Notes under the pieces: model-generated | What the model saw: only the letters and a program-made list of their open reading frames with translations | What the model was told of the DNA's origin: nothing | Databases searched by the model: none | Assembly (NCBI GenBank): GCA_038217285.1 | Contig: JBBQPO010000080.1 | Span: forward strand, 1-21,111 | DNA: 21,111 bases | Direction of reading: 5' to 3' | Source: Chthonomonadales bacterium | GTDB lineage: Bacteria; Armatimonadota; Chthonomonadetes; Chthonomonadales; Chthonomonadaceae | Position numbers and translations under genes: made by a program | Part shown: positions 1-21,111 of the stretch, piece after piece | How the letters are laid out: every line of letters begins with the position of its first letter | Numbering within the stretch: the first letter of the stretch is position 1

Positions 1-139
1 CGTCCGTACAGCCATAATATATCACCCGCGTAGCTTCGCTCCAGACCGTTCAGATTGAAACGGAATCAGTGTTCATTTTGAACGCGATTCAGTGTTCATT
101 TTGAAACGGAATCAGTGTTCAAATTCGCCGGAATGTACA
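1..139 (+). mobile_element. Terminal region of an IS21-family-like insertion sequence (rest of element lies left of the window)
   Basis: Four tandem 23-bp repeats end in ...CCGGAATGTACA at 139, which reads 5'-TGTACATTCCGG... inward. Multiple subterminal transposase-binding repeats and TG...CA ends are typical of IS21-family termini. No transposase is visible in the window. Confidence 0.65.
48..139. repeat. 4 x 23-bp imperfect tandem repeat, consensus GTTCAttTTGAAaCGGAATCAGT
   Basis: Units: 48-70 GTTCAGATTGAAACGGAATCAGT, 71-93 GTTCATTTTGAACGCGATTCAGT, 94-116 GTTCATTTTGAAACGGAATCAGT, 117-139 GTTCAAATTCGCCGGAATGTACA. There are no spacers. Confidence 0.95.
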
Positions 140-6580: not shown

Positions 6581-7234
6581 ATGTCAAATGTAACACGCAT
6601 TAAAATTTGTGGGATTACGAATTGGGAGGATGCGCTGACGGCGGTAGAGCTAGGGGCGGATGCGCTCGGCTTTATTTTTGTGCCGCAGACGCCGCGATTT
6701 GTAGGGGAGCGGGAGGGAGTGGAAGAGATGCTGCGCGCGGTGCCGCCTTTTGTGACGCGGACGGCGGTATGCACGACGGCAGAGACGTTGCCGGTCGGGC
6801 TGCTCGACAGCCTGGGCGCCGTGCAGTTCTACAGTCTGGACTTTCCGCACGTTCCCGGTAAGCGCATGGTGCAGTCGTTTCGGATCAAGGATGCGGGCAG
6901 TCTGGAGTTGATTGAGGAGGCTCTGCGGAGGCGGCGTCCGCAGGCGATTCATCTCGATACGTACCACAAAGATAAGATGGGCGGTTCGGGGGAGACGTTC
7001 AACTGGGAACTGGCGCTGGCGGCGAAAGCGCGGTTCGATCTGCCTTTGATTCTGTCAGGAGGATTGACACCGGAGAATGTTGCGGAGGCAGTCAGGGTGG
7101 TGCGGCCTTATGCGGTCGATGTGTCCAGTGGCGTCGAGGCCGAACCGGGCCGCAAAGATCCGGCCCGGCTGCGCGCTTTCTTCGAGGCCGTCCGCGCCGC
7201 CGACCGTCTGCTCTCTACTTCGCGGGCAGAATGA
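6581..7234 (+). CDS. trpF: Phosphoribosylanthranilate isomerase
   Basis: RIKICGIT, GADALGFIF, GGSGETFNW, ILSGGLTPENV and AVDVSSGVE..PGRKD are hallmark TrpF motifs. Confidence 0.96.
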   Translation: MSNVTRIKICGITNWEDALTAVELGADALGFIFVPQTPRFVGEREGVEEMLRAVPPFVTRTAVCTTAETLPVGLLDSLGAVQFYSLDFPHVPGKRMVQSFRIKDAGSLELIEEALRRRRPQAIHLDTYHKDKMGGSGETFNWELALAAKARFDLPLILSGGLTPENVAEAVRVVRPYAVDVSSGVEAEPGRKDPARLRAFFEAVRAADRLLSTSRAE

Positions 7235-8858
7235 GCAGGGTCACGCTCTGCGCGGGAACTGCCAGACGCACCGTGTTGCCAGAGGCTGACAGATCTTTCT
7301 GCCGGACGATGGTATTGGCGGAGGTGAGCTGCCAGACCTGAATCGCGCCTTTCGGCACGAAGTTGGCGAGCGAGAGTGCAGGGAGCGCCGGGCTGTCCAG
7401 CGATTTGTTGATGAGCATGACGGTCAGCGCTCCGTCGGTGGTGCGCTGCCCCGCGAACGCGGCCAGGCTGTCCGAGTTGGGGGCGACGGCCTGAACGCTC
7501 GTCTCCCCGAAGCCCGACTTCTTCCCGTCGTAGTTGCGGTAGAGCTTCATTGCCTTGTAGGTCGGGGTGTCGGATTTCGGGGTCGTCCAGCGGGTCGCCA
7601 TATCGAGACCCTCCCGACCGAAGATCCCCAGAATGTCGGCCTGCGCGGTCGCGCCGTTGATATGGCTCTCCGCCCCCCAGTTGTATTCGGTGATGCCGGT
7701 GCGCGTTCCAGGATAAGACGTGGCAACCCAGTTCTTCATGCGCGGAATCAGGGCGACCTTGCTGTTGATCCAGCTTTCGTCGGTATAGTTGGGGTCCCAG
7801 AGGGAGCGGGTCGAGCGGTTACGACGGAGTTGCATAGCGCTGTCGGTCCCGTTGTTGAACTCGCCGCCCTGCGGGTAGTAGTGCAGGCTGAAGACATCGA
7901 GTAGACGTTTGCCGGTGCGGACGCCCTCCTGGCGGAACTGGTCGAGCAGCCAGGGCATGGCGTCCACATTGCCGTGTGCGGCGCGGTCGGGCAAATGGCT
8001 CCAGTCCTTGTGATCGTTGCCCCACTGCGAGTCGTAGCCGCTGTAGAGGTAGCCGGTCCAGCCCCACTCTTCCGGCCCCACGACGAGCGCCGTCGGATCG
8101 ACCGCTTTGATCTTCGCCGCATAGTCGAGCGACTTGCTGCGCAGCGCGTCCAGTTTGAGACCGACCGGCTGCACATCGCGATGCGTGCTGTTCCAGAGGG
8201 CCGGTTCGTTGTCGAGAAGATAGTATTTCACGCCCCCAGTGGCAGCCGATCCCCATTTTGCCACGAGATGTTTCACCCATGCCTGCTGGAACGCCGCGCT
8301 GTTGGGCACGTTGGCGTCGGTGGGATCGTTGCCGGTGACAGGCTTCCCCGTGCTTTTCAGGGTGCCATTGCCGGCGTCGGGGAACCACTGCGAGTCGCTG
8401 CCGGTCTGCGCGCCGTACTTCGCGATGGAGAAACCGGCGAGCTTGCCGCGATTGGGCCCGACCTTCGCCACCCAGTCGATCATGGGGATGGTGAGCATCG
8501 TCTGCGCACCGGCAGCTTTGCTGCGGGCCATAAAGGTGTCGCCGCGCTCGCCCGGCGTCGCACTGGGCTCCGCGATGCTCTCGAAATAGTAGTCGTTGGC
8601 ACGGTTGTCGGCGTTCAGTTGCCAGTTGTAGCGCGTCGTGTTGTTGCCGCCGTTGCGATGCAGCGGGATATTGAGATCGTTCAGCGCGGCGTCATCGGCA
8701 TAGGCGACGCCGTAGATCAGCGGACTGATCGGATGCCGGTTGGCCTTCGCATCGATCGTTATGGGGACCGGCGTTCCCTGTGCCCGCGCCGCGCCGCTTC
8801 CTATCGCGGTCAGTCCCCACCCGATCACACCCACCGCTCCGAGTTTTCTCCAGGTCAT
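7215..8858 (-). CDS. Secreted glycoside hydrolase family 44 (endoglucanase/xyloglucanase)
   Basis: Signal peptide (...AARA/QG), ISPLIYG, RNGGNNTTRYNW, catalytic-type YLLDNEPALW and GITEYNWG, and ADILGIFGREG. The 3' end overlaps trpF by 20 bp (convergent). Confidence 0.88.
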   Translation of the reverse strand: MTWRKLGAVGVIGWGLTAIGSGAARAQGTPVPITIDAKANRHPISPLIYGVAYADDAALNDLNIPLHRNGGNNTTRYNWQLNADNRANDYYFESIAEPSATPGERGDTFMARSKAAGAQTMLTIPMIDWVAKVGPNRGKLAGFSIAKYGAQTGSDSQWFPDAGNGTLKSTGKPVTGNDPTDANVPNSAAFQQAWVKHLVAKWGSAATGGVKYYLLDNEPALWNSTHRDVQPVGLKLDALRSKSLDYAAKIKAVDPTALVVGPEEWGWTGYLYSGYDSQWGNDHKDWSHLPDRAAHGNVDAMPWLLDQFRQEGVRTGKRLLDVFSLHYYPQGGEFNNGTDSAMQLRRNRSTRSLWDPNYTDESWINSKVALIPRMKNWVATSYPGTRTGITEYNWGAESHINGATAQADILGIFGREGLDMATRWTTPKSDTPTYKAMKLYRNYDGKKSGFGETSVQAVAPNSDSLAAFAGQRTTDGALTVMLINKSLDSPALPALSLANFVPKGAIQVWQLTSANTIVRQKDLSASGNTVRLAVPAQSVTLLILPAK

Positions 8859-9717: not shown

Positions 9718-10274
9718 GAACAAAGAAGCGGTGGTTTCGCGTGGGGCCAGGCTTGCTCCTTGCCCTTATCGTTGCAGGGGCAATCCTGGCTTCGGGGCAG
9801 TGGTTCAACAAGATGCCTACGGATCCAGGCACAGGAAGTATTGTCTGGGAGGCCGATGCGCACGGACATCTGCGCCGCGTGAGTGCGCCTACGACGCCAA
9901 AGCAGGGAGTGCCACCCCGGCTCTGGAAGCCCGAGGTAAGTCTGCTTTCAAAGAGTGCTTCGCTTCTTCACCTGACCGCTGCGCAGCGCACTTGTCTGGC
10001 TGCTCTGGCTACGGCCTGGGAGCGCGAAAAAGCGCAGATCGAGGCAGAGATGGATCGGGCCTCTACCAACGCTCGCGCCGTTGCTGCACACGCCACTCCG
10101 GAGCGAGCCGCTTCCGCTACGCAGATGATGCAGCGCCTTGGCGACTACTCTACGCTCTCCGCACAGTACGACTCTCGACGGACGGCCTATTGGGTACAAG
10201 GGTACGCCATTCTATCGCCGGAGCAACAACGAAAGATGGAGAGCCTTACCGAGGCCGCAAGGAGAAAAGAGTGA
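9696..10274 (+). CDS. Membrane-anchored periplasmic helical protein with LTxxQ motifs (Spy/CpxP/ZraP-like)
   Basis: AAGGAG RBS and GTG start, an N-terminal TM segment, and LHLTAAQR and ILSPEQQ motifs flanking a long helical region. Confidence 0.65.
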   Translation: MQSHNRLGTKKRWFRVGPGLLLALIVAGAILASGQWFNKMPTDPGTGSIVWEADAHGHLRRVSAPTTPKQGVPPRLWKPEVSLLSKSASLLHLTAAQRTCLAALATAWEREKAQIEAEMDRASTNARAVAAHATPERAASATQMMQRLGDYSTLSAQYDSRRTAYWVQGYAILSPEQQRKMESLTEAARRKE

Positions 10275-11623
10275 CCATACACCGACCGATACGCAGGCTC
10301 GGGAGTATTACGCTCTTTGTAGCCCTCCTTGGCAGCCATTCGCTTCTTCTCGCTCACGCGCAGACGCTCGGAGCGGACCAACCCAAATTAGCGGGGCCAC
10401 TCTCGGTTGCGCGGGCCGTGCAAACCGGCTTACGCGAGAACCTGATGCTACGGGCCGCCCGCGCGGATGTGGCGGCGGCGGCAGCGGAGACGCGTGTTGC
10501 CAAAAGCCAGACCCGGCCCCAGGTTTCCGCCAACACCTATCTGTCCTACGGGGATTTCAGCAACATCTTAAACACCGCGCCGAGTGTCGCGCCGACAAAC
10601 TACCTCAACGTCCCCTCGCAAGGGTTTGCCGATCAAAACGTGACCCTTATGGCTCCGCTCTACACCAGCGGGCGCTTGAGCAACCTGGTGCGCGCCGCCT
10701 CCCTGCGGGAACGCGCGGTGACTCAGGATGTCGGTGGCGTTCAGGCGGATACGGGTCTGCGCATCAAAGAGGCGTACTACCGCGCTCTGCTGACCGGCGA
10801 GGTCATCAAGGTGGCTCAGTCGCGTGTCGACGCCGATATCGAACTTGTCCGAAACGCTCAGGCGCTCTTTACCGCAGGGAAAGGACTGGAAGCGTCCGTA
10901 CGCCGGGTGGAGGCTGAGCGCGCAGACGCAGACCGCGCGCTGACGACCGCCCGTAACAATCAGGCCAAAGCCCTTCTTGATCTCAAGGCTGCGATGGGTG
11001 TTCAGCTCGGCTCCGACATCACGCTCGCCGACGCCCTTACCTTTGCGCCCCCCTCCGGAGACCTCGCAAAGCAGCTTGCGGACGCCGCGCAGACGCGTCC
11101 GGAGCTGCTTGCCTCCCGCTCCCGCGTGCAAGCGGCAGAGGCGCAGACACGGTCCGTGCGCGGCTCGCAGGGGCCGCAGGTGGCCGGGATGGCTATGGCG
11201 GACGGGTTTACCTCGCATCCCCTTGGTACCCGTGAAGGCTATACCGTCGGTATCGTCATCAGTCTGCCGCTTCTGGACGGCGGCCAGCGCAGAGCCGAAA
11301 CGGCCCTGGCCCGTGCGCATGCGGAGCGTGCCGACGCCGAGCGGCGCGACCTGGAGCTCCGGATAGCGAACGAGGTAACGCAGGCTTGGCTGGATGTCGG
11401 GACGGCGGCCGAGAACTACCGCAGCGCACAGACTGGGCTCCAGTCGGCACAGGCTTCTTATGACGTCACCGCGCTGCGGGTGCAAAACCAGAAGGGGATC
11501 CTGGTCGAACAGCTCGATGCGCTCGCCGCTGTCGTCCAGGCGCGGGGCAGTGTGGCGCAGGCGCTCTACGATCACGCGCTCGCCGTCGCTCGGCTTCAGC
11601 GCGCTGTGGGGAGGCCAGAGTGA
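10271..11623 (+). CDS. TolC-family outer-membrane efflux protein
   Basis: GTG overlaps the upstream TGA (GTGA). Signal peptide, LSVARAVQTGLRENLML, two OEP repeats (PLYTSGR, RPEL, SLPLLDGG) and terminal LQRAVG. Confidence 0.9.
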   Translation: MTIHRPIRRLGSITLFVALLGSHSLLLAHAQTLGADQPKLAGPLSVARAVQTGLRENLMLRAARADVAAAAAETRVAKSQTRPQVSANTYLSYGDFSNILNTAPSVAPTNYLNVPSQGFADQNVTLMAPLYTSGRLSNLVRAASLRERAVTQDVGGVQADTGLRIKEAYYRALLTGEVIKVAQSRVDADIELVRNAQALFTAGKGLEASVRRVEAERADADRALTTARNNQAKALLDLKAAMGVQLGSDITLADALTFAPPSGDLAKQLADAAQTRPELLASRSRVQAAEAQTRSVRGSQGPQVAGMAMADGFTSHPLGTREGYTVGIVISLPLLDGGQRRAETALARAHAERADAERRDLELRIANEVTQAWLDVGTAAENYRSAQTGLQSAQASYDVTALRVQNQKGILVEQLDALAAVVQARGSVAQALYDHALAVARLQRAVGRPE

Positions 11624-13959
11624 ATCATAGGATGCAAGCCTTTCTTAAGGAACATGGACAAGCGATGAATGTACGAATTATTGCCCTTCTCGTACGCTTA
11701 CTCTGCGCACTCTGTTTGGCGCTGATCGCGCCGATTACTGCGCTTGCCGGGCCCACGACCGAGGCCGGACCCTATCGCATCGAGCTGGCGACCAGTCCGG
11801 ATGTGATCGTCGTGGGCAAGGGGAAGCTGCTGCTCAAGATTACGGACGCCTCCGGCAAACCCGTCGAAGGGGCCAGGATCATGGCTCTGGCGAAGATGCC
11901 GGGCATGAACATGGGCGAGCGCGAGCAGCCCGCCGCAGCCCAGCCTGGTCAGCCCGGCGTCTATGCCGCCCCGGCGCAGTTCGCGATGGAGGGCGGGTAC
12001 GAGGCGACGATACGGATCGAAGGCACCGCAGGCACAGCGACAGCGACACTCTCCTTGACCACAGGGCAGAGCACGGGACCGCTGTCCGGTTCAGGCGCTG
12101 CCTCCGGCGCTTCAGCGTCTTCCGCCCCTACAAGCGGCCGCGGGTTTCGCCTGCTTCCGCTCTTGCCCTGGATCGGCGGCGTGCTGCTGATCGCCTTTGT
12201 GCTCCAGCGGATGCGGCAAAGCGGGCAAAAACTCCACTTCAAGGGAGTCTTCAACCGCACCGTACTCGTTGAAATGTTACTGATGGCACTGTTCCTGGCA
12301 GGAGCCTACTACGCCGTGAGTCACTTCCGCCGGCCGGGAGCGATGACGCCTATGGAAGCGCAGTCCATGGAGATGAATCTTCCTGCGCCTCAGGGCACGG
12401 CCCCCGTAGAGTTGGCCACGGTGACGGAAGGTCCGCTTCAGAGCACGGTGCGCTATACGGGGCAGGCCGTGGGGTATGTGGAGCAGGACGTCTCGCCCCG
12501 CATCACCGGAGTCCTTGTCTCTATGCCGCTCTATGTCGGAGACCGGGTGAGACGGGGACAGATCGTGGCCCGTCTCGATACCTCGCAGAGCGCCCCTCAG
12601 GTCGCCAGTCAGCAGGCGGGCGTGATCATGGCGCAGGAGGGAACCGCCGTCGCAGAGAAGGATTACGAGCAGGCTCTCTCCCTGGTGTGGCAGGCCGAAG
12701 CCGAAGTCGGCATGAAGACCGGAGCCGTCGACTCGGCGCGCGCGGACATCACGACTGCGCAGGACGAGCGCACAAGCGCCCAGGCAAATCTTACGGCGGC
12801 TCAAACCATGGTCGGGGATGCGAACGCCCAACTTCAAGCGGCGCAGGCCGATCAGCGGTACTGGCGACAGGAGATCGACCGCGAAAAATCTCTGCTCGCA
12901 GCCGGAGCCGTGACACGTGACGAGTTTCAGCGCGAAACGGCGCAGGCGGAAAATGCCGACGCCAAAGTGCGGCAGTCACAGGCGCGGATAGACCAGACGC
13001 AGGCGCAGGTCGCAGCCGCTGTCTCAGGCGTCCACAAAACCGATTCAATGATCACGTCGGCACAGGCAAAGCTCACGCAGGCCCTATCGGACCTGACCGC
13101 GTATCACGCGCATGTCCATTCCGAAGAGGCGGCCGCGATTGCCGCCCGGCAGAAGATCAAGCAGGCGCAGGCAGGCGTTGCACAGGCGCGTGCCGGTCTC
13201 GCCGGGGCGGCGGCCACACGCGGCTACAGCGAAATTCGCTCGGAGACGGACGGCGTCGTCACGCAGCGGGTGATCAGCCCCGGCGTACTCGTGAACCCGG
13301 GCCAGACCATCCTGAAAATCGCCCAGATCTCTCCGATCCGCTTACAGGCGAACGTCGCCGAAAACGACCTGGCGCGGGTCCGGGTGGGAGGCTCGGTGCT
13401 GATACACAGCCAGGGCGCTTCGGGAAAATTCCTTCCAGCGCGCATCAGCTCGATCGCGCCTTCTGTCGATCCGACTTCGCGTACCGGCGTCGTTGAAGCC
13501 ATTGTCCCCAATCAAGACGGTCGCTTACTGCCCGGCCAGTACCTTGCGATGGACCTCCTGACAGGACGAGACGCGAACGCGCTGCGCATTCCGACCCGCG
13601 CCATTCGCCACCATACGCCTCCTTCCGGCGGCGTCATCTCCACAAAGACCGCGGCCTATGTCTGGGTTGCGGAGCCTGTCGCCGGCCAGGAGAAGCAGTA
13701 CACGGTGCAGGAGATAGTGGTGCAGACGGGCCTGACCGATGCAACCGGCACCGAGATCGTCTCGGGCCTGAAGGCGGGGCAGCAGGTCGTGGTCGCGGGC
13801 CAGGACTACCTCAAAGACGGAGACACGGTCTCTCCCGTCAGCGCGCCGGAAGCATCTGGAGGAGGCGCCATGCCGAATATGCCAGGCATGTCCAATACGC
13901 CGAGCCCGAACAGGGGCTCCCTGCAGGGAATGCCCGGAATGAACGGAGGCGCGAGGTGA
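11620..13959 (+). CDS. RND periplasmic adaptor (membrane-fusion protein) with N-terminal YtkA/FixH-like domain and Met-rich tail
   Basis: N-terminal DASGKPVEGA..KMPGMNMG..PGVY..FAMEGGY (YtkA-like), two internal hydrophobic segments, lipoyl halves (VGDRVRRGQIVARLD; IRSETDGVV..PGVLVNPGQ), a long coiled coil, VDPTSRT and GLKAGQQVVVAGQ. GTGA coupling at both ends; alternative ATG at 11665. Confidence 0.88.
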   Translation: MNHRMQAFLKEHGQAMNVRIIALLVRLLCALCLALIAPITALAGPTTEAGPYRIELATSPDVIVVGKGKLLLKITDASGKPVEGARIMALAKMPGMNMGEREQPAAAQPGQPGVYAAPAQFAMEGGYEATIRIEGTAGTATATLSLTTGQSTGPLSGSGAASGASASSAPTSGRGFRLLPLLPWIGGVLLIAFVLQRMRQSGQKLHFKGVFNRTVLVEMLLMALFLAGAYYAVSHFRRPGAMTPMEAQSMEMNLPAPQGTAPVELATVTEGPLQSTVRYTGQAVGYVEQDVSPRITGVLVSMPLYVGDRVRRGQIVARLDTSQSAPQVASQQAGVIMAQEGTAVAEKDYEQALSLVWQAEAEVGMKTGAVDSARADITTAQDERTSAQANLTAAQTMVGDANAQLQAAQADQRYWRQEIDREKSLLAAGAVTRDEFQRETAQAENADAKVRQSQARIDQTQAQVAAAVSGVHKTDSMITSAQAKLTQALSDLTAYHAHVHSEEAAAIAARQKIKQAQAGVAQARAGLAGAAATRGYSEIRSETDGVVTQRVISPGVLVNPGQTILKIAQISPIRLQANVAENDLARVRVGGSVLIHSQGASGKFLPARISSIAPSVDPTSRTGVVEAIVPNQDGRLLPGQYLAMDLLTGRDANALRIPTRAIRHHTPPSGGVISTKTAAYVWVAEPVAGQEKQYTVQEIVVQTGLTDATGTEIVSGLKAGQQVVVAGQDYLKDGDTVSPVSAPEASGGGAMPNMPGMSNTPSPNRGSLQGMPGMNGGAR

Positions 13960-16900
13960 GCCAGATACCGTCCCATAAGAATGCGCCCGCTACGCCGCCG
14001 CCGGGGCACCGCATGAACGCGCTTCACTTAATCCATAAATGGTCCATCGAGCATCCTTATGCGGTGATCGCCTTCTACGTGGCGATGATGGGCCTGGCCT
14101 GGATGACCATCAGCCACACCATGCCGCGTCGATTCGCGCCCTATGTGGAAAGTCCTATGATCGGGGTCGTCACCATGATGCCGGGGCTCTCCGCCCAGGA
14201 GATGGAGATCTACGTCAGCAAGCCCATCGAAGAGCAGTTGATCAACGTCAAAGGGCTGCGCTATATTCGCTCGAACTCGCAAAACGGGTTCTCGATCGTG
14301 ACGCTTCAGTTCCCCTACGGCACCAATATGCAGCGCGCGATTGTGGATATTCAGGCGCTCATGAACGTCACGCAGTCCAACCTGCCCGCGACGGGTGCGA
14401 ACCTAAAACCCTCCTGGGTCGTGCCGATCGATCCGCTCAATCTGCCCATTCTCACATTGAGTCTGCGCGGGGATCCGAAAGCGGGCTGGGACGCGGTGCG
14501 GGCGCGCGAGTTCGCCGATAACACGGTCGTGAACCGCATAAAGGAAGTTCCGGACGTCTACTCCGTCGTGCCCTTTGGCGGCTATCGGCGGCAGATGCAG
14601 GTGGTTGTGGACCGCGAGAAACTGGCCGCCTACCGGCTCTCTATTTTAGACGTCAAAAACGCCATTGATCGCTACAACGTCAGCCGTCCGGCAGGTACGC
14701 TGACGAGTGGCGCGCAGGAGGGAATCGTGCGCGTCGATACGCGCGCCCTGAGTGCGGAAGATATCCTGGGCTATCCGATTACGAGCGTCGGCAGCGACGC
14801 TTCCGCGTCCGGGTCATCACCTTCCGGCGGAGCGCCTGCGGGCGGTGGCGGGGGCGGCATGGGAGGTGGAGAGGCGCCCGGTGCCGCGCCTACGCCCTCC
14901 GCGCCGGTCGGTGCGTTGCGTTCGCCGCGCGTGATCTATGTGCGCGATGTGGCGCGAGTCGTGGATACGCACTTCGAGCGCCGAAGCGGCTATCACTACC
15001 TTAAGCACGAGCCGGGTACGAAAGGCGAGGTTATTCCCTCCATCGAAGTGTCGGTCATCCAGGATCCGGGGGCCAGTTCGGCGACCGTGGTTCCCGCCGT
15101 CATGAAGGTCATCAACCAGCTCGAAGACGAGAATCCTGGCCTGCACTTCGACGTCTCCTACGACAACGCCCACTTCGTGAACATTCTCTTTCACAACGTG
15201 TGGGAAGAGCTTCTGACCGCCGTCCTTCTCACGGGCATCGCCATCTTGTTCTTCTTGGGAGAGTGGCGGGGAACGCTCATCGCGATGATCGCGCTTCCCA
15301 CATCCCTTGCGATCGCCGTGATGATGATGGTGCCATTCGGCATGACTTTCAACAGCGGCACCCTCATCGGCCTGCTCCTCGCTATCGGTCGGCTTGTCGA
15401 TGACAGCATTATCGACATTCACGCGGTGGAGCGTCATCTGCGGATGGGGAAGGACCCGAAGACCGCGACCATCGACGGCATTGCGGAAGTACGCCTGGCG
15501 GTAATCGCCTCGACGATCATGATCGTGCTTGCCCTCTCACCGCTGCTCTTTTCAGGGGGGATCACGCAGATCATGTTCAAAGAGCTGGTGTGGCCGCTGA
15601 TCTTCGGCCTGCTGGCCTCGATGCTGGTCTCCTTTACGTTGACCGCCCTGCTCTGCGCGAACCTTTTGCGGCCGGAAAGCGCGCGGGAGACAGACCGAAA
15701 GCATCCCATTATCAAGTGGCTCTACGTCGTGCTCGACCCGTTCCAGCGGTTCTTAGACCGACTGGACGGTGGTTACGGGCGCCTGCTTCGCTGGATGCTG
15801 AAGCACCGATTCGCAAACATGGTCCGCGTCTTCTTAACCCTCATCGTCGGGTTTACCTTCTACTACTTCATCGGCAGTGAGATGATGCCGCTCGCCGATG
15901 TCGGTCAGGCCAATGGTCTTTTGGAGATGGCTCCCGGCACCTCCTATGCCGAAACAGAACGGGCGGTCGGGCAGCTTGAGCGTATCCTGCAGAAGTACCC
16001 GGAGGTGGAGAAAGCAAGTATCGAAATAGGCGCCGAGACCATGTTTGAGAGCTGGACCCCATTCTACACCGGCTACCAGATGCCCCAGGTAAACGGGGCC
16101 TCCATGATGCTGACCTTCAGCGACAAGGATAGCCGCAAGCGCACGATTTTTACTATTATCGACGCGGTCCAAAAGGAGGCCCTACACACCATCCCCGGCA
16201 TTCGGCGCCTGCAGATCAAGGAGATGGGCAGCGACGTCATGGCAACCTCTGCCGCCCCTGTCCATGTCAATATCTTTGGCCCGGACTTAAAGGAACTCGA
16301 CAAGCTGGGCGAGGAGGCGCTCGGGGTCGCCAGGAAGATGCCGGAGATCTTCCAACCCGGAACGACCTGGACGATAGGACTGCCGGATTATCAGATCAAA
16401 GTCGATCCGCAGCGGGCGCAGGAGGTCGGGCTCTCGCCGGAGAGCATTTCGCAGCAGGCCTACTATGCACTAAGCGGGGGGCTGACAAACGAGTTTTATC
16501 GGTTGCCCAACCTGAGGCAGGATACCATCCAGGTGCGCTACGAGCAGAAGGACCGGGCGAACGCGCAGAGTCTGGAGAACCTGTATCTGACAACCCCGGA
16601 CGGACGGCAAATTCTGCTCAAGTCGGTCGCGACTATCGAAGACGGCAATGCCCCAACCGTCATCGAGCACGACGGTTTGAAGCGGGTGATCGGCATTACG
16701 GGCTACTACCGTACAGAGGCGCTCCCGACGATGGATGTGGTGATGAACCTCGTTGCCAACATCTATGCCGGTAATAAGAAGTTAGGTATCCAACCGATAA
16801 ACTTTCCGCCCGGCTACGGCATGGAGATGCGCGGCGACATGACGGAAATGATGGACTCCTTCCGTCGCATGATCAGCGGCCTGACGCTGGCGCTCGCGCT

Positions 16901-17462
16901 CATGTACCTCGTCCTCGTGGTGCAGTTCCGGGGCTTCCTGCAACCGCTGCAGATGATTGCCTCCCTGCCGCTCGAGCTTGCGGGCGTCTTTACCGCGCTG
17001 TGGCTGGCGCACCAATCGTTTTCAACAGTCTCTATTCTAGGCATTATCGTGCTGACCGGCATGGATATCACGACCGCGGTGCTGATGATCGACCTGATCA
17101 TGAAGTACCGGGACCGGGGCGTACCGCGAGATGAGGCCGTGATAAAGGCGTGTCCGGATAGGCTGCGTCCGATCCTGATGACGACAGGGATTACGATCAT
17201 CACGATGCTCCCCGTTGCTCTTGCGCCCAAGACAGGGCTGGACGCCTATCAGCCGCTTGCGACGACCGTGGTAGGGGGATTGCTTGTGGGGACTGTCTTA
17301 AGTCTTCTGGACATTCCCATCATGCACACCTATGTGGATGATCTCACGCGCTGGCTCACCAAGACGTTCCGCAACCGGGATTGGGAGTGGCCCGTGACGG
17401 AGGCAGACGACCTGCACGAGGTAGATGGCAGTGAATTAGGCGACGTGTCAAAGAAGCTATAA
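13956..17462 (+). CDS. RND-family efflux permease (AcrB/CusA superfamily)
   Basis: PGLSAQEMEIYVSKPIEEQL, TM4 AIGRLVDD, RLRPILMTT, PLATTVVGGL and the two-repeat RND topology over 1168 aa. Confidence 0.93.
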   Translation: MSQIPSHKNAPATPPPGHRMNALHLIHKWSIEHPYAVIAFYVAMMGLAWMTISHTMPRRFAPYVESPMIGVVTMMPGLSAQEMEIYVSKPIEEQLINVKGLRYIRSNSQNGFSIVTLQFPYGTNMQRAIVDIQALMNVTQSNLPATGANLKPSWVVPIDPLNLPILTLSLRGDPKAGWDAVRAREFADNTVVNRIKEVPDVYSVVPFGGYRRQMQVVVDREKLAAYRLSILDVKNAIDRYNVSRPAGTLTSGAQEGIVRVDTRALSAEDILGYPITSVGSDASASGSSPSGGAPAGGGGGGMGGGEAPGAAPTPSAPVGALRSPRVIYVRDVARVVDTHFERRSGYHYLKHEPGTKGEVIPSIEVSVIQDPGASSATVVPAVMKVINQLEDENPGLHFDVSYDNAHFVNILFHNVWEELLTAVLLTGIAILFFLGEWRGTLIAMIALPTSLAIAVMMMVPFGMTFNSGTLIGLLLAIGRLVDDSIIDIHAVERHLRMGKDPKTATIDGIAEVRLAVIASTIMIVLALSPLLFSGGITQIMFKELVWPLIFGLLASMLVSFTLTALLCANLLRPESARETDRKHPIIKWLYVVLDPFQRFLDRLDGGYGRLLRWMLKHRFANMVRVFLTLIVGFTFYYFIGSEMMPLADVGQANGLLEMAPGTSYAETERAVGQLERILQKYPEVEKASIEIGAETMFESWTPFYTGYQMPQVNGASMMLTFSDKDSRKRTIFTIIDAVQKEALHTIPGIRRLQIKEMGSDVMATSAAPVHVNIFGPDLKELDKLGEEALGVARKMPEIFQPGTTWTIGLPDYQIKVDPQRAQEVGLSPESISQQAYYALSGGLTNEFYRLPNLRQDTIQVRYEQKDRANAQSLENLYLTTPDGRQILLKSVATIEDGNAPTVIEHDGLKRVIGITGYYRTEALPTMDVVMNLVANIYAGNKKLGIQPINFPPGYGMEMRGDMTEMMDSFRRMISGLTLALALMYLVLVVQFRGFLQPLQMIASLPLELAGVFTALWLAHQSFSTVSILGIIVLTGMDITTAVLMIDLIMKYRDRGVPRDEAVIKACPDRLRPILMTTGITIITMLPVALAPKTGLDAYQPLATTVVGGLLVGTVLSLLDIPIMHTYVDDLTRWLTKTFRNRDWEWPVTEADDLHEVDGSELGDVSKKL

Positions 17463-17485: not shown

Positions 17486-17512
17486 TGAACGGCGCTCTCT
17501 CGGGCGGTGTCT
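17486..17512 (+). promoter_or_regulatory. Possible ECF-type (autoregulatory) promoter
   Basis: TGAAC (17486-17490)-N18-GTCT (17509-17512), immediately upstream of AGGAGG (17521-17526) and the sigma gene. Matches the generic ECF AAC...GTC pattern. Confidence 0.35.
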
Positions 17513-17538: not shown

Positions 17539-18126
17539 ATGGCAGAAGCGCAATCAGACGAATATCTGCTGGGCAGGATCGGCGAACGGGATGCCGAGGC
17601 GTTCGAGACGCTCCTGACGCGGTACCAGGAGAGCGTTCGCGGGCATCTCCTGCGGACGGTGCGCGATCCCAACACGGCGGAAGACCTGACTCAGGAGGTC
17701 TTTCTGCGGGTCTGGACGCGCGGCGAACAGTGGAACGGCCATGGCCCCTTCCGTGTCTGGCTGTTCCGCATCGCCACCAACCTGGCCCTCAACTATCTCC
17801 GCACCGTGCGCCGCCGTCGGGAGTGTCCCCTGGAACTGCCCTCCGATGGCCCGGACGAAGAGAGCGTGCCGCGTATCCCCGACTGGATGATCGACCGCGC
17901 CAACGCCGGCCCAGAGCGCGCGCTGGAGCAGGGTGAGCGTCGCCGTCAGTTGCAGCATCTGGTCGAAGAGTTGCCGCGCGAGAAGCGCGAGGTGTTCCGC
18001 ATGGTCTTCGACGCCGAGATGGAGATACGCGATGTCGCCGAATCGCTGGGCGTCCCGCCCGGAACCGTCCGCTCCCGCCTCCACTACATCCGCAAACGCC
18101 TCGCCCGCGAATGGGACGAGGATTGA
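17539..18126 (+). CDS. ECF-family RNA polymerase sigma factor (sigma2 + sigma4)
   Basis: sigma2: DAEAFETLLTRY..AEDLTQEVFLRVW..FRVWLFRIATNLALNYLR. sigma4: LPREKREVF..IRDVAESLGVPPGTVRSRLH. ATG 17539 lies downstream of AGGAGG. Confidence 0.93.
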   Translation: MAEAQSDEYLLGRIGERDAEAFETLLTRYQESVRGHLLRTVRDPNTAEDLTQEVFLRVWTRGEQWNGHGPFRVWLFRIATNLALNYLRTVRRRRECPLELPSDGPDEESVPRIPDWMIDRANAGPERALEQGERRRQLQHLVEELPREKREVFRMVFDAEMEIRDVAESLGVPPGTVRSRLHYIRKRLAREWDED

Positions 18127-18166
18127 TCGCCTCATGGGAGAGGCTGCTTATCGAAGGAGACATAAA

Positions 18167-21111
18167 ATGGACATGTCTGCGCCCTGGCACAGGGCTTCGT
18201 TTGACCTCTTTATCCAGGAGAAGCTGCCGCAACTGCTGGCCACGCGTCTGCCGTTAAGCGGCTATCGCGTCACTTTCACGTTCGAGACAAGTTGCGGGAT
18301 CGACCTGGCCCTGGGAACGAGTGGGCACGAGGTAAACCTGGGTTTTGGTGAACTGCCACGACCCGATGCGGAAGGCGTTTTCTGGCGCAATGAGAGGCCC
18401 TATGTCGTGCTGCCGACCGCTTCCTGCGATGAACTCGATCAGGCGGAGATCCATTGCGTGGGCGAACAACTCCTGGCAGACATCACCTCCCGCCTCGGGG
18501 AAGCGCCGGACGAGCTGCCCTGGGATGAGGCGCTGGCCCGGCTCTGGCTGCCGCTCGACGGCTGGATACGCGGCTATATCGAGCGTACCGCGCAGGCCCT
18601 TGACACGACCAATCTCCTCAGCCGCAAGACGCATCTGCGCAGGCTCTCGCTGCCGAGTCGCGAAAAAATGTTTACGCCCGGTCACTATGGACGCGCCTGC
18701 CCCATCGAGACTCCGGAAGGGCCGAACATCGGTCGTGTGCTGGTGGTGGCGCGCGGTGCAACGATTCGGGAGGGCCGCCTGGAGATCGTCGATACCCGTC
18801 CCGAGATGATGCTCGGACTCTGCGCCTCGCTCATCCCCTTCCTGGAACATAACGAGCCCTGCCGTGCGCTCATGGGCGCGAACATGCTGCGGCAGTGGGT
18901 CACCCCAGCCGATCCGGAGCGTGCCCTGGTAGGCACGGGCAACGAGCCCGACGATCCGAACTTCTGGTCGGGACACAATCTGGTCACAGCTTACGTTCCG
19001 TGGGGGCTGGACAGCTTCGAGGATGCGATCGCCTTGAGCGAGACCTGCGCGCAACGCCTCTCCACGCCGAAGCCGATTCAGGTGGGCGATAAGCTGGGGA
19101 ATCGGCACGGCGCGAAGGGAGTGGTCAGCCGCATCCTGCCCGACGCCGAGATGCCGCATCTGTCGGACGGCACCTGCGTGGATCTGGTCTACGACTGCAT
19201 GGGGCTCTATTCGCGGATGAATTTCGGGCAGGTGCGCGAGGCGCTGATGGGACGCATCGCCCAGAAGGAAGGCGTTCCCGCGATCATGCCGCCTTTCGCC
19301 GCCCCTTCAGAAGCGGAGTTGAGAGAGCGCCTGAGGCGGGCCGGACTGCCCGAGGACGGTATGGAACAAGTGACGGAAGGCAAGGACGGAGCGCCGCTGG
19401 AGCGCCGGGCGACGGTCGGCGTGGTCTACTGGGGGCGTCTGATCCACACTGCCGCGCAGGGCTATTTCGCCTCGACGCTGCCGGAGGGCTGTCAGCGACA
19501 GGGAGAACTGGAATACTATGCGCTGCGCAACACGGGAGCAACCGCCAATCTGCGCGAGCATTTCTATCTCCGCGCCTCCGAAGCCTGCGATGCCGCGACG
19601 CTGGCCGAGCGTGTGCGAATCGGCACGCCGCTCACCTTCCCCATGCCTTCGCCACGATGTGCGGAGCTGATACGCCGTCTGGCAGCGGCCGGTATTCAGG
19701 CGGAGAAAGGACCGGAGGGGTTGACCTTCGCCTTTGTCGCTCCTACCGAGGAGATCCTGACGCTGGCGCAGCCGATCCCGCATCCCTGGCTGCCGGAGCG
19801 AACCCTGACGGAGGTCGGCGTCTCTTCGGCGGCGCTTCCGCAGTTTCGCGCACTGACGGAGGCCAATGCCCGAATGTCCCGACTCCTGAATATGGGAGCG
19901 CCTGAGACGCTGCGCGCCGGAGCGTTTTGGGAACTGGAGACTGCCGCTCAGCGCTATCTCAATGCGCTCGTTCCCGCATTGCAACTCCGCTTGCAGGCGC
20001 GTCCGATGTTTAACGGGCGGGCGGTCGCAACGCCCGGCGATCTGCGCTACGATCAGGTCGGAATTCCGGAGGAGATGGCCTGGACCCTGTTCGAGCCCCT
20101 GCTGGCACAGGAACTGGGGGAGGCTGCCCTGGTGCCCCGGACAGAGGCGACTGTGCGGCAACTCGATGCTCTGATGGCGCGCTCCTGGGTGCTTGTACAG
20201 CGTTCTCCTGTCATCGAGCCCACCGGCTTCCTGGCATTTCATCCGTTGCGGTGCGCCGGACAGGTCATTCGCCTGCATCCGCTGGCCAACCACTCCCTCA
20301 ACGCGGATTTCGACGGCGACATTCTGTCGATTTTTCTGCCGATCACCGAGGAAGCTCAGCGGGAGGCGGGAGAGAAACTCACGCTGGCCGGGCATCTGCA
20401 CCGTGAACCGGAACTATTGGGAAATTTCCTGCCTCTGCACTCTGCGCGTGCCGGACTGGCACTGCTGGCCCGTACCGCAGAAGGCCGCGAGGAGATCCGG
20501 CAACTCGCCGGTACAGCCTCCCCCTTGCCGGACAGTTCGCTGAATCGCGCCGGCCTGCTCACGCTGGCGCAAGAGGTGCTGACCACGCAGGGAGCGGAAG
20601 CCACTATCGCCGCTATGGACCGCCTGACGCGACGCGGATTCCAGAGAGCAAAGCGGTCCGGGCTCTCCCTCAGTCCCTTCCTAGGCGCGGGCTTCGCGCG
20701 GCCCGATCCGCCGCAGAACCCGAGTGCCGAAATCTGGACATACTGCACCCCTTACTCCACGACGGTCGTGCCTTTCTACCCACCGGCAAACGCCGAAATG
20801 TGGGAAGTCTACACGGAAGAGCTGATCGAGCGATTGCATAGGCACAGCGCCAACGACGATCTGGAGCCGTTCCTGGTTGCGGTACGCAGCGGCGCCCGAA
20901 GCAACTATCCGATCCTGCAAAAGTTTGTAGGAGCTTATGGGGTCGTAGAGGATGTGAAAGGCGAACGTGTCGCCATACAACACTCCCTGTGCGACGGAAT
21001 GACACCGGAGGAGTGCCATACGCTCTGTGTGGGAGCACGCAATGGAATCGCCCGCGCCGCCGCCGAACTGGAGCATGTCAGCCGTACCCTGCGCCAGTCC
21101 AATCTGCCCAC
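18167..21111 (+). CDS. Miniaturised single-chain RNA polymerase beta-beta' fusion protein (3' end outside window)
   Basis: AAGGAG RBS (18154-18159) and ATG 18167; the frame stays open for 981 codons to the window edge. Beta motifs: HYGRACPIETPEGPNIG 18683-18733, SLIPFLEHNEPCRALMGANMLRQ 18827-18895, FED 19016-19024, GDKLGNRHGAKG 19085-19120, SRMNFGQ 19211-19231, GCQRQGELEYYAL 19487-19525. Beta-prime motifs: LTLAQPIPHPWL 19757-19792, FNGRAV..QVGIPEEMAWTLFEP 20009-20098, NADFDGD 20300-20320, GFQRAKRSGLS 20636-20668, SGAR 20888-20899, GMTPEE..GARNGIA 20996-21052. Confidence 0.93.
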   Translation, partial: MDMSAPWHRASFDLFIQEKLPQLLATRLPLSGYRVTFTFETSCGIDLALGTSGHEVNLGFGELPRPDAEGVFWRNERPYVVLPTASCDELDQAEIHCVGEQLLADITSRLGEAPDELPWDEALARLWLPLDGWIRGYIERTAQALDTTNLLSRKTHLRRLSLPSREKMFTPGHYGRACPIETPEGPNIGRVLVVARGATIREGRLEIVDTRPEMMLGLCASLIPFLEHNEPCRALMGANMLRQWVTPADPERALVGTGNEPDDPNFWSGHNLVTAYVPWGLDSFEDAIALSETCAQRLSTPKPIQVGDKLGNRHGAKGVVSRILPDAEMPHLSDGTCVDLVYDCMGLYSRMNFGQVREALMGRIAQKEGVPAIMPPFAAPSEAELRERLRRAGLPEDGMEQVTEGKDGAPLERRATVGVVYWGRLIHTAAQGYFASTLPEGCQRQGELEYYALRNTGATANLREHFYLRASEACDAATLAERVRIGTPLTFPMPSPRCAELIRRLAAAGIQAEKGPEGLTFAFVAPTEEILTLAQPIPHPWLPERTLTEVGVSSAALPQFRALTEANARMSRLLNMGAPETLRAGAFWELETAAQRYLNALVPALQLRLQARPMFNGRAVATPGDLRYDQVGIPEEMAWTLFEPLLAQELGEAALVPRTEATVRQLDALMARSWVLVQRSPVIEPTGFLAFHPLRCAGQVIRLHPLANHSLNADFDGDILSIFLPITEEAQREAGEKLTLAGHLHREPELLGNFLPLHSARAGLALLARTAEGREEIRQLAGTASPLPDSSLNRAGLLTLAQEVLTTQGAEATIAAMDRLTRRGFQRAKRSGLSLSPFLGAGFARPDPPQNPSAEIWTYCTPYSTTVVPFYPPANAEMWEVYTEELIERLHRHSANDDLEPFLVAVRSGARSNYPILQKFVGAYGVVEDVKGERVAIQHSLCDGMTPEECHTLCVGARNGIARAAAELEHVSRTLRQSNLP

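Follow-up and report, generated by a model that had tools for sequence, protein, structure and literature searches.

A Putative Miniature Single-Chain RNA Polymerase of Bacterial Beta and Beta-Prime Descent Paired With a Dedicated ECF Sigma Factor Gene

Introduction

A single five-subunit core enzyme of about 400 kDa is generally held to underlie all cellular transcription. To our knowledge, the single-chain relatives of this enzyme are either phage and plasmid enzymes that barely resemble cellular RNA polymerase (RNAP) or come from a eukaryotic plasmid. Orf6 of the yeast linear plasmid pGKL2 is described as an Rpb2::Rpb1 fusion RNAP of 982 residues. YonO, encoded by the Bacillus prophage SPbeta, is a single-chain two-barrel RNAP that lacks a trigger loop and has a mass of about 100 kDa; the YonO paper reports it to be active, processive and efficient in vitro and leaves open the need for any factor. 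Two-barrel enzymes can also switch template or product, as is known for QDE-1 and PolD.

The window analysed here, a 21,111-nt stretch of DNA, is an entire contig (C80). At its end lies a gene whose sequence looks like that of an undescribed second, miniature transcription enzyme beside the normal RNAP. It belongs to a chromosomal, multi-phylum family that keeps 38–42% identity to beta and beta-prime in the conserved blocks. The family no longer has the flap, lobes, zinc domain or trigger loop, and it comes with its own sigma factor alongside. Our literature search found no description of the mini polymerase/sigma pair, and the ECF reclassification paper with one of its supplements makes no mention of Rpb2, PF00562 or PF00623; Iyer and Aravind (2012, J Struct Biol) may bear on novelty. 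An earlier sequence-only reading of this DNA knew of no characterised example. That holds for the family itself, which is undescribed in the literature searched, but the reading had not mentioned the analogue pGKL2 Orf6.

Results

An Intact Gene Divided Between Two Contigs

Translation of the window gave a single stop-free frame of 981 codons (18167–21111, + strand) that runs off the contig end, just as the sequence-only reading had it.

18153..18159, + strand: ribosome-binding site GAAGGAG, 7 nt upstream of the polymerase ATG (direct sequence reading)
18167..21111, + strand: putative mini RNAP gene, beta::beta-prime in a single chain, codons 1–981; continues on contig C293

The last 39 codons were located at bases 1–117 of contig C293, followed by a stop codon. 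Since the missing 3' end was found there, the gene was truncated by the assembly and is not broken. The complete protein, joined from the C80 and C293 parts, has approximately 1,020–1,022 residues. ATG 18167 is backed as the start codon by GAAGGAG 7 nt upstream and by an MxxSAPWH N-terminus common to the homologues. GC3 of the polymerase gene is 0.74 versus 0.77–0.83 for neighbouring and housekeeping genes.

Conserved Domains and Catalytic Residues

Three Pfam domains are found along the protein in the order Rpb2_3 (aa 143–196, E 2e-9), Rpb2_6 (aa 298–428, E 2e-36) and Rpb1_2 (aa 672–735, E 3e-12), in keeping with the earlier claim of RpoB-type followed by RpoC-type motifs in one chain. Searched against PDB sequences, the window protein matched bacterial beta (E 2e-47) as well as beta-prime (E 1e-21). 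The features of the coding sequence are as follows.

18167..19726, + strand: beta-like half, aa 1–520 (family HMM against E. coli beta; model superposition)
18587..18664, + strand: fork loop/rifampicin-cluster region, TAQALDTTNLLSRKTHLRRLSL... (HMM alignment, residue mapping, translation)
19013..19024, + strand: SFED, aa 283–286, equivalent of beta E813/D814 (local HMM alignment, translation)
19085..19120, + strand: GDKLGNRHGAKG, aa 307–318, beta-barrel motif with both catalytic lysines (mapping, translation)
19694..19825, + strand: small beta-sheet junction between the halves, aa 510–553, family-specific (strands 510–551 in the relative's model)
19826..19969, + strand: beta-prime clamp helices, a coiled coil (hhalign match to E. 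coli beta-prime starting at residue 266)
20300..20320, + strand: NADFDGD, aa 712–718, Mg-binding aspartate triad of the beta-prime barrel (translation)
21005..21100, + strand: bridge helix (hhalign to E. coli beta-prime residue 797; helix 948–979 in the relative's model)

The family HMM aligned to E. coli beta residues 474–581, 653–707, 788–823, 1054–1147 and 1177–1342. The beta-like half comprises a remnant of the beta N-terminus, the fork/rifampicin region, regions E and F, the double-psi barrel and the C-terminus. The barrel with its two basic residues (GDK...KG) is present at aa 307–318, where Pfam Rpb2_6 agrees. The mini polymerase scored 198.6 bits against the bacterial model and 121.2 bits against the archaeal one, and the family is clearly derived from bacterial beta and beta-prime. 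It falls far below the NCBIfam equivalog cut-offs for the housekeeping subunits (198.6 versus 801 bits for rpoB and 97.5 versus 963.5 bits for rpoC).

Each catalytic residue that the sequence-only reading had named as retained maps onto E. coli beta or beta-prime. By family HMM mapping, beta Q513, D516, H526, R529, R678, K1065, K1073, R1106 and H1237 are identical in the window protein; beta-prime R425 corresponds to R679 and D460/D462/D464 to D714/D716/D718. Among 89 family members, the equivalents of K1065, K1073 and R1106 are each kept in 88, H1237 in 86 and R425 in 87, while the three aspartates are found in 88, 89 and 89. SFED, assigned from a local HMM match (E 2e-5) and not from the global residue mapping, has E in 66 and D in 83 of the 89. 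The N458 equivalent, which we take to be the rNTP-sensing residue, is N in 67/89 and D in 14/89.

The clamp helices are the main docking site of sigma region 2 on bacterial RNAP. They span residues 554–575 and 580–601 in the relative's model, and the equivalents of N276, R278, R281 and P288 are kept in 87, 82, 86 and 89 of the 89 members. Positions R275, E295 and A302, presumably important for sigma-70 binding, have diverged to A, A/T and R in the same 89 members. Switch 2 is retained, and the hhalign match reached beta-prime residue 797 (bridge helix) with a probability of 99.85%. The junction (aa 510–553) has no E. coli counterpart in the beta or beta-prime alignments.

The AlphaFold model that we used is that of P0002, a full-length relative 87% identical to the window protein. 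It is predicted as one confident unit (pLDDT 93.5, pTM 0.90), and the structures that it matches best are chains of bacterial beta and beta-prime. Residues 1–517 superpose on beta/Rpb2 chains with Z of about 30 and rmsd of 2.3–2.8 Å over 465–516 residues. The whole-chain pTM of 0.90 argues for the two barrels being held in a fixed arrangement in P0002.

Elements That Have Been Lost

In the HMM and hhalign comparisons, E. coli beta residues 1–473 (save the weak N-terminal remnant) and 824–1053 have no counterpart in the mini polymerase, and nothing aligned to beta-prime residues 1–265 and 798–1329. On the beta side this removes the lobes and the flap, an SBHM insert within the barrel; on the beta-prime side, the zinc domain, lid, trigger loop and jaw are absent. 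Only about 20 residues lie between FED and GDKLGNRHGAKG, so the flap insert is missing. The sequence-only reading had proposed looking for a trigger-loop motif beyond the contig end; there is none, because the full-length members stop about 45 residues past the bridge helix. The C-terminal tail was considered as a homologue of the beta-prime C-terminus and set aside: it aligned at the expected place (~1330–1355) at an insignificant E of 0.26.

A jumbo-phage review, citing Iyer and Aravind (2012), describes the flap as the insert in the beta barrel on which sigma/TFIIB docks. With the flap deleted, sigma region 4 is left without a known seat.

A Widespread Family Under Purifying Selection

Among the top 150 representatives at 50% identity, at least ~75 clusters have 943–1,101 residues and span the whole profile, and many homologous proteins of ~1,000 residues share the same deletions; the window gene is not a one-off. 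The same architecture is found on complete chromosomes of other phyla. The family is chromosomal and accessory, with a patchy distribution over several bacterial phyla. The polymerase gene is under purifying selection and does not evolve neutrally (dN/dS 0.14–0.17): dN/dS is 0.141 over 948 codons against locus L006 and 0.165 over 959 codons against L007, and it ranges from 0.08 to 0.20 in all six segments of the gene.

Canonical rpoB and rpoC are present in the same genome as separate genes on contig C172. No ribosomal protein was found by Pfam among the 12 window ORFs scanned, and an ECF sigma gene lies upstream, which agrees with the earlier view that this is not the housekeeping locus. Together, the homologues, dN/dS, the separate rpoBC and the confident predicted fold support the central proposal of the sequence-only reading, a second, stripped-down enzyme derived from bacterial RNAP, whose activity is predicted from sequence.

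A mobile-element origin was tried and rejected, with no match of ≥80% coverage in 50,697 phage and 72,556 plasmid records. IMG/VR gave only four weak partial matches to the mini polymerase. A tblastn search matched 36 phage records, none with ≥80% query coverage, and "Bacillus" was not among the ten name categories listed. A defence function was also discarded: PADLOC returned no match for the polymerase and a marginal one for the sigma factor (E 0.0011).

The Sigma Factor Gene and Its Predicted Promoter

The two upstream features lie on the same strand as the polymerase gene.

17486..17511, + strand: predicted ECF-type operon promoter, –35 TGAAC (17486–17490), 15-nt spacer, –10 GGTGTC (17506–17511)
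17539..18126, + strand: gene for a 195-aa ECF (group 4) sigma factor, its start ATG 17539 preceded by AGGAGG (Pfam, NCBIfam)

The sigma factor carries the Pfam domains Sigma70_r2, Sigma70_r4_2 and Sigma70_ECF, consists of regions 2 and 4 only, and scored 111.6 bits against NCBIfam TIGR02937 (cut-off 42.9). Orthologues of it in three phyla can be aligned from end to end, and dN/dS of the sigma gene is 0.11–0.13. The polymerase gene begins 40 nt downstream of it. An orthologous ECF sigma gene lies upstream on the same strand in all 17 loci with upstream flank and is directly adjacent in 16 of them, an S9 peptidase gene lying between in the other one; in locus L047 the end of the sigma gene and the beginning of the polymerase gene share 4 nt. 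A search of 301 genomes of the phylum gave 14 sigma matches at E ≤1e-35, every one adjoining a polymerase gene, and no such match was found in the 283 genomes of the same phylum without the polymerase. The sigma gene is the invariable partner of the polymerase gene and more than its context. The polymerase is its only conserved neighbour: other flanks vary between loci, there is no anti-sigma gene beside the pair, and no conserved small downstream gene accompanies the polymerase in the loci examined. Sigma-polymerase fusion proteins were looked for and none were found among the lengths listed; in two cases a long open frame turned out to consist of separate genes.

The motif GAAC-N14-17-GTGTC is found upstream of the sigma gene in 29/29 loci scanned (L007 and L034 are one record), all with an AAC –35 element, a GT-rich –10 element and ECF spacing. 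The conserved motif probably functions as a promoter, and an autoregulated one. In locus L015 an inserted gene parts the sigma gene from the polymerase gene, and a second copy of the motif stands immediately in front of the polymerase gene. The 6.2-Mb genome of the window has just three occurrences of the strict motif. A search of that genome for a regulon extending past the operon found none (six matches to a relaxed motif versus two to the reversed control), and motif counts in five other genomes were near the controls.

Discussion

The polymerase gene is unbroken, evolves under purifying selection, occurs widely and is always linked to a sigma gene. We propose that the ECF-type promoter TGAAC-N15-GGTGTC would drive a two-gene operon of a dedicated sigma factor followed by the mini polymerase, in which pruned catalytic skeletons of beta and beta-prime are predicted to be joined head-to-tail. 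The sigma factor on the host core enzyme would fire its own promoter first. The product would be an active single-chain DNA-dependent RNAP without a trigger loop, for which alpha and omega would be dispensable, and it would initiate with the same sigma factor docked on the retained clamp helices. We put the probability of this mechanism as a whole (operon fired by sigma, active mini polymerase, same sigma as its initiation factor) at roughly 0.6. Its parts differ in strength. The retained residues make catalysis by the mini polymerase very probable; since YonO is active without a trigger loop, catalysis without one is plausible here. Control of the operon by the sigma factor is equally probable. 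That the sigma factor is a physical subunit of the mini enzyme is suggested at slightly under even odds. We advance somewhat more tentatively the idea that sigma and one polypeptide could form a complete, self-contained transcription machine with its own promoter class (TGAAC-N15-GGTGTC) alongside the housekeeping enzyme.

The strongest competitor, which we consider unlikely, is that the sigma factor is a transcriptional switch only, working with the host core, and that the mini polymerase acts sigma-free, as YonO may. The geometry of the promoter is that of an ordinary ECF promoter, and the host holoenzyme must be the first to read it, so the sigma factor could be a regulator only. The loss of the flap (the seat of sigma region 4), zinc domain and lid points the same way, as do the diverged clamp-helix positions that we take to contact sigma-70 and the question of factors left open in the YonO paper. 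Against this, the clamp helices (N-x-R-x-x-R and AP motif) survive although nearly all other peripheral elements are lost, no close sigma orthologue occurs away from the polymerase in the 301 genomes, and the pair comes without an anti-sigma gene.

It is improbable that the protein is another kind of polymerase built from the RNAP core, one that copies RNA or single-stranded DNA or primes synthesis in a QDE-1-like manner under an ECF-sensed stress. The missing duplex-DNA channel elements (lobes, jaw and most of the clamp), the regulon search that found none, the variable N458 equivalent (D in 14/89) and the template or product switching described for QDE-1 and PolD would suit such a role. However, the fork, switch 2, bridge helix and the hybrid-contacting Q513, H526, R529 and R425 show the conservation typical of DNA-dependent enzymes, and the linkage to a promoter-recognition factor would otherwise be hard to explain. 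A decaying rpoBC duplicate, an assembly chimera or a non-catalytic sigma-binding decoy, to which the contig-end position and the loss of half of each parent subunit might point, is highly improbable given the same architecture on complete chromosomes of other phyla, dN/dS of 0.14–0.17, nearly invariant catalytic residues, the confident predicted fold, and a contig piece from a public DNA run that spans the beta/beta-prime junction (19548–20061) with zero differences (the three runs gave short contig pieces only, and junction coverage came from one).

If the mini polymerase is active, it bears on which parts of RNAP are truly required for catalysis and which for sigma-directed initiation, and on why cells should maintain a further, minimal polymerase that is under stress-type control. 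Small orthogonal transcription systems would then have a natural starting point as well. Should the two-protein machine prove true, it would be the smallest sigma-dependent RNAP known, one that does without alpha, omega, flap and trigger loop. It would reveal how small a part of the cellular polymerase suffices for promoter-specific transcription, and it could serve as a compact orthogonal expression system.

Compared with known systems, the mini polymerase resembles bacterial beta and beta-prime in that its conserved blocks are 38–42% identical to the genome's own rpoB/rpoC and the region order, catalytic residues, clamp helices and bridge helix are all kept. It differs in size, one chain of ~1,020 residues versus 1,342 + 1,407 residues for E. 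coli beta and beta-prime, and in lacking the lobes, flap, zinc domain, lid, trigger loop and jaw of the housekeeping RNAP. The rpoBC fusions of Helicobacter and Wolbachia are likewise single polypeptides with beta ahead of beta-prime, but they are full-length housekeeping enzymes of ~2,800–2,900 residues; the mini polymerase scored 168 and 160 bits against the fusion models NF007172 and NF011417, whose cut-offs are 5,372 and 4,632. YonO is also a single-chain, two-barrel enzyme without a trigger loop. According to its published description it shares few catalytic residues with the multisubunit enzymes, whereas the mini polymerase matches beta at E 2e-47; YonO is prophage-borne, with no sigma linkage described for it. 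Judged by architecture, pGKL2 Orf6 is the closest described analogue. By its published description it has beta followed by a partial beta-prime homologue, a similar size and about half of each subunit deleted. Orf6 is also reported to retain almost every conserved region of beta, to be without most of the clamp, to depend on a separate Orf7 bearing the beta-prime C-terminal regions, and to act together with a helicase and a capping enzyme in the eukaryotic cytoplasm with no sigma factor. The mini polymerase, in contrast, is bacterial and chromosomal, keeps the clamp helices and is linked to a sigma factor.

The mini polymerase gene and its completeness

The gene at the right end of the window is real, intact and under selection. 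It encodes a pruned single-chain beta::beta-prime protein, referred to here as the mini polymerase, and shares an operon with a dedicated ECF sigma gene. The uninterrupted frame at 18167-21111 claimed in the sequence-only reading was borne out: 981 codons without a stop are open in one frame from ATG 18167 to the last base of the window, which is the entire contig C80 of a 6.2-Mb assembly in 459 contigs. A GAAGGAG ribosome-binding site is found 7 nt 5' of this ATG, and the N-terminal motif of the protein is common to its homologs, which supports the start at ATG 18167. The genome was searched with a full-length relative (P0002, 87% identity), and the missing tail was found in the first bases of contig C293, with 92% identity to P0002 over residues 985-1022 followed by a stop codon. 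Since the tail and stop stand at the start of C293, the gene runs to about 1,022 codons, broken by the assembly alone. The same reading took the mini polymerase to be a second enzyme beside the housekeeping one; separate canonical rpoB and rpoC genes are both present on contig C172 (open frames of 1,375 and 1,587 aa), and their products show 38-42% identity to the mini protein in common blocks.

Domains, retained parts and lost parts

Three Pfam domains were found in the mini polymerase, in this order:
aa 143-196, Rpb2 domain 3
aa 298-428, Rpb2 domain 6 (E 2e-36)
aa 672-735, Rpb1 domain 2

A PDB sequence search with the mini protein found bacterial beta chains (E 2e-47), archaeal subunit B (3e-29) and bacterial beta-prime (1e-21). 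None of the curated NCBIfam models reached its cut-off with this protein. Aligning a family HMM built from 89 members to the two E. coli K-12 subunits (beta, 1,342 aa; beta-prime, 1,407 aa) showed which stretches remain: beta 474-581, 653-707, 788-823, 1054-1147 and 1177-1342, reaching the final residue of E. coli beta, and beta-prime 267-512 and 586-797; hhalign matched the family to beta-prime 266-797 with a probability of 99.85%. Every catalytic residue claimed earlier maps to the identical residue of E. coli beta or beta-prime and translation places the motifs where they had been reported, and the original observation is thereby confirmed.

The family keeps both barrels, in which the catalytic residues hardly vary across the 89 members. 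Also kept are the fork and the rifampicin-cluster residues Q513, H526 and R529, the switch 2 arginines, the beta C-terminus, the beta-prime clamp helices, the F-loop region and the bridge helix. Beta-prime 1-265 (zinc domain, lid) is lost, as is most of beta 1-473 (lobes, protrusion). The flap is also lost, as only ~20 residues separate FED from GDK. All sequence from the bridge helix to a short conserved C-terminal tail (~45 residues) is missing; with nothing remaining between them, the trigger loop and jaw are gone. The tail aligns to beta-prime ~1330-1355, which we take to be the expected place of its counterpart, at a non-significant E value of 0.26.

Predicted fold

Of the modelling suggested in the sequence-only reading, an AlphaFold2 run was made on P0002, in place of the window protein, with the 89-sequence alignment. 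The P0002 model is a confident fold (mean pLDDT 93.5, pTM 0.90, no stretch below 50). Foldseek ranked bacterial beta chains first (E ~1e-24), with beta-prime chains within the top 50. The beta half (residues 1-517) was superposed by VIA-align on beta/Rpb2 chains from all three domains of life (465-516 residues, Z ~30, rmsd 2.3-2.8 A), spanning chain residues ~20 to ~1,140. Because the superposition starts near chain residue 20, the N-terminal 106 residues are what is left of the beta N-terminus; this assignment agrees with a weak hhalign match (family 62-109 against beta 121-173, E 0.008). For the packing of the two barrels into a fixed arrangement, the evidence is the pTM, which suggests it. 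A ~22-residue insert (window 20723-20788, polymerase aa ~853-874) resembles a tandem duplication (SAEIWTY... then NAEMWEVY). It is lineage-specific, being common to the window protein and P0002 and absent from two other family members (P0005 and P0012), and it is the sole low-confidence stretch of the P0002 model (pLDDT 53-74).

Family, distribution and selection

In a word-indexed protein search we found 656 matches. The best 120 of the 656 are nearly all 998-1,064 residues long with the same three Pfam domains and, where named, are called "hypothetical protein". The source names of the homologs include Chthonomonadaceae, other Armatimonadota, Chloroflexota, Poribacteria and Hydrogenedentes; genome scans confirmed three phyla, and the source names add a fourth. 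An exhaustive profile search of 1.84 billion cluster representatives gave at least ~75 clusters of 943-1,101 residues covering the whole profile, besides many fragments; among the matches listed, full-length rpoBC-like proteins (1,600-2,800 residues) appear only below ~450 bits. The deletions, first read as belonging to a stripped-down enzyme, are thus found in many homologs of the same size and domain content. Several representatives of ~490-530 residues begin near the beta/beta-prime junction and may be fragments or genuinely split versions of the protein. In one Poribacteria genome (locus L076, G396:C2) a 1-nt frameshift in a run of three Gs (GGG, locus ~2082-2112), exactly at this junction, divides the polymerase gene into ORFs of 607 and 441 aa; either the sequence is in error there or the gene is a pseudogene.

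At a threshold of E<=1e-60, with the seed genome included in every phylum count, the mini polymerase is found in 18/301 genomes of the window's phylum, among them only 1/17 other genomes of the organism's own family. It is found in 30/151 genomes of the phylum holding a Poribacteria locus (L012) and 3/401 of the phylum holding a Chloroflexota locus (L011), and on these counts the gene is accessory and patchy. Purifying selection was detected rather than the neutral outcome: dN/dS (Nei-Gojobori) is 0.141 against locus L006 (948 codons, dS 0.75) and 0.165 against L007 (959 codons, dS 1.14, near saturation). It is 0.08-0.20 in all six gene segments, including the N-terminal remnant and the junction. 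L034 is the same record as L007 and was left out of the comparison.

Sigma partner and predicted promoter

The partner gene lies directly upstream of the polymerase gene:
17539-18126, ECF sigma factor, 195 aa, regions 2 and 4

A genome scan found 20 related loci; 17 with the whole gene and upstream flank were counted, and the short fragments L008, L009 and L010 were left out. An ECF sigma gene is upstream on the same strand in 17/17 loci and adjoins the polymerase gene in 16 (in L021 an S9 peptidase gene stands in between); the two genes share 4 nt in L047, where sigma stop and polymerase start overlap. The downstream genes vary by locus (sulfatase, FAD oxidoreductase, dethiobiotin-synthase-like, short-chain dehydrogenase, MFS transporter, type I methylase, HNH). 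The sigmas are orthologs with 36-87% identity over full length and a dN/dS of 0.11-0.13, and have in common an acidic linker and a P-x-W-L/M-I-D motif.

The window sigma was also searched in 301 genomes of the phylum. Since all 14 matches at E<=1e-35 adjoin a polymerase gene in polymerase-positive genomes, close orthologs of this sigma do not occur without the polymerase among the genomes searched. In three more positive genomes the neighboring sigma has diverged further (E 1e-28 to 1e-30), and one positive genome with a polymerase fragment only gave no sigma match at E<=1e-25. Sigma matches in 40 other genomes without the polymerase (E 1e-25 to 1e-31, 34-38% identity) are taken to be other ECF groups.

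Each sigma gene is preceded by TGAAC, a spacer of 15 nt (14 nt at a single locus) and GGTGTC. The pattern GAAC-N14-17-GTGTC is at the expected place in 29/29 loci scanned (the window, 17 from the genome scan and 11 from the phylum prevalence search; L007 and L034 are one record). In L015 an unrelated opposite-strand gene lies between sigma and polymerase, and a second motif copy is found directly 5' of the polymerase gene. The motif is predicted to be an ordinary ECF-type autoregulated promoter, with the polymerase gene as a probable conserved target. No wider regulon came to light: the organism's own genome has 3 matches to the strict motif and 6 to the relaxed motif (2 for the reversed control), and counts in five other genomes are near control. 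Two Poribacteria genomes (G303 and G305, loci L062 and L068) have a second, extended motif copy at locus ~1501 ahead of a gene for a multi-pass membrane protein; this gene, orthologous between the two, may be another member of the regulon.

The sigma would switch the operon on via the host holoenzyme, and the same sigma may also serve the mini enzyme. Absence of the flap counts against the latter role, as do changes in the family at three clamp-helix positions, presumably sigma-70 contacts. The equivalents of clamp-helix N276, R278, R281 and P288, kept in 82-89 of the 89 members, count for it, in contrast to the yeast-plasmid enzyme, which is described as having lost most of the clamp.

Other observations in the window

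At 112-1707 (minus strand) is a 531-aa protein with ankyrin repeats, whose C-terminal domain (aa 464-518) resembles the CTD of the RNA polymerase alpha subunit (Pfam RNA_pol_A_CTD, E 5e-10), an unusual pairing 16 kb from the mini polymerase. Genes for an outer-membrane factor, a CusB/HlyD-type adaptor with a YtkA domain and an RND pump (9731-17462) stand between a GH44 glycosidase gene (7215-8858, minus strand) and the sigma gene. The efflux operon looks inserted, because the GH44 gene stands immediately next to the sigma-polymerase pair in L006 and L007, both close relatives.

Comparison with known polymerases

The full-text literature covered (Iyer and Aravind 2012 lies outside it) gave no account of a sigma-linked mini fusion in bacteria, and the ECF reclassification paper with one supplement does not mention such a neighbor. 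Set against statements in a review by Iyer and co-workers, the family would be an exception among cellular-type enzymes. In Salmonella phage Arash (OQ632216.1) and three Vibrio phages (OZ196140.1, OZ196545.1, OZ195729.1), one ~2-kb stretch matches query 298-746, running from the beta barrel straight into the beta-prime barrel, a hint that phages, too, may carry compact fused polymerases. The ESM Atlas holds two clusters of the mini polymerase family (1,006 and 1,026 aa). Further Atlas clusters with both PF00562 and PF00623 (1,330-1,787 aa, taxa unrecorded) suggest that there may be more kinds of mid-sized beta/beta-prime fusions than reported so far.

In architecture, the nearest counterpart described is Orf6 of yeast plasmid pGKL2, an Rpb2::Rpb1 fusion of 982 residues whose working partner is the small Orf7 subunit; a 2018 study calls this fusion unknown in any other polymerase. 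The closest functional precedent is YonO of prophage SPbeta, the sequence of which is described as hardly similar to cellular enzymes. This single-chain enzyme is reported to be efficient without a trigger loop, and with this precedent the mini protein, too, is predicted to be an active RNA polymerase catalyzing without one. Helicobacter-type fusions, unlike the mini polymerase, are full length. The family is widespread and unnamed, and it probably belongs among the single-chain two-barrel polymerases. To our knowledge, it is the first of these tied to a sigma factor.
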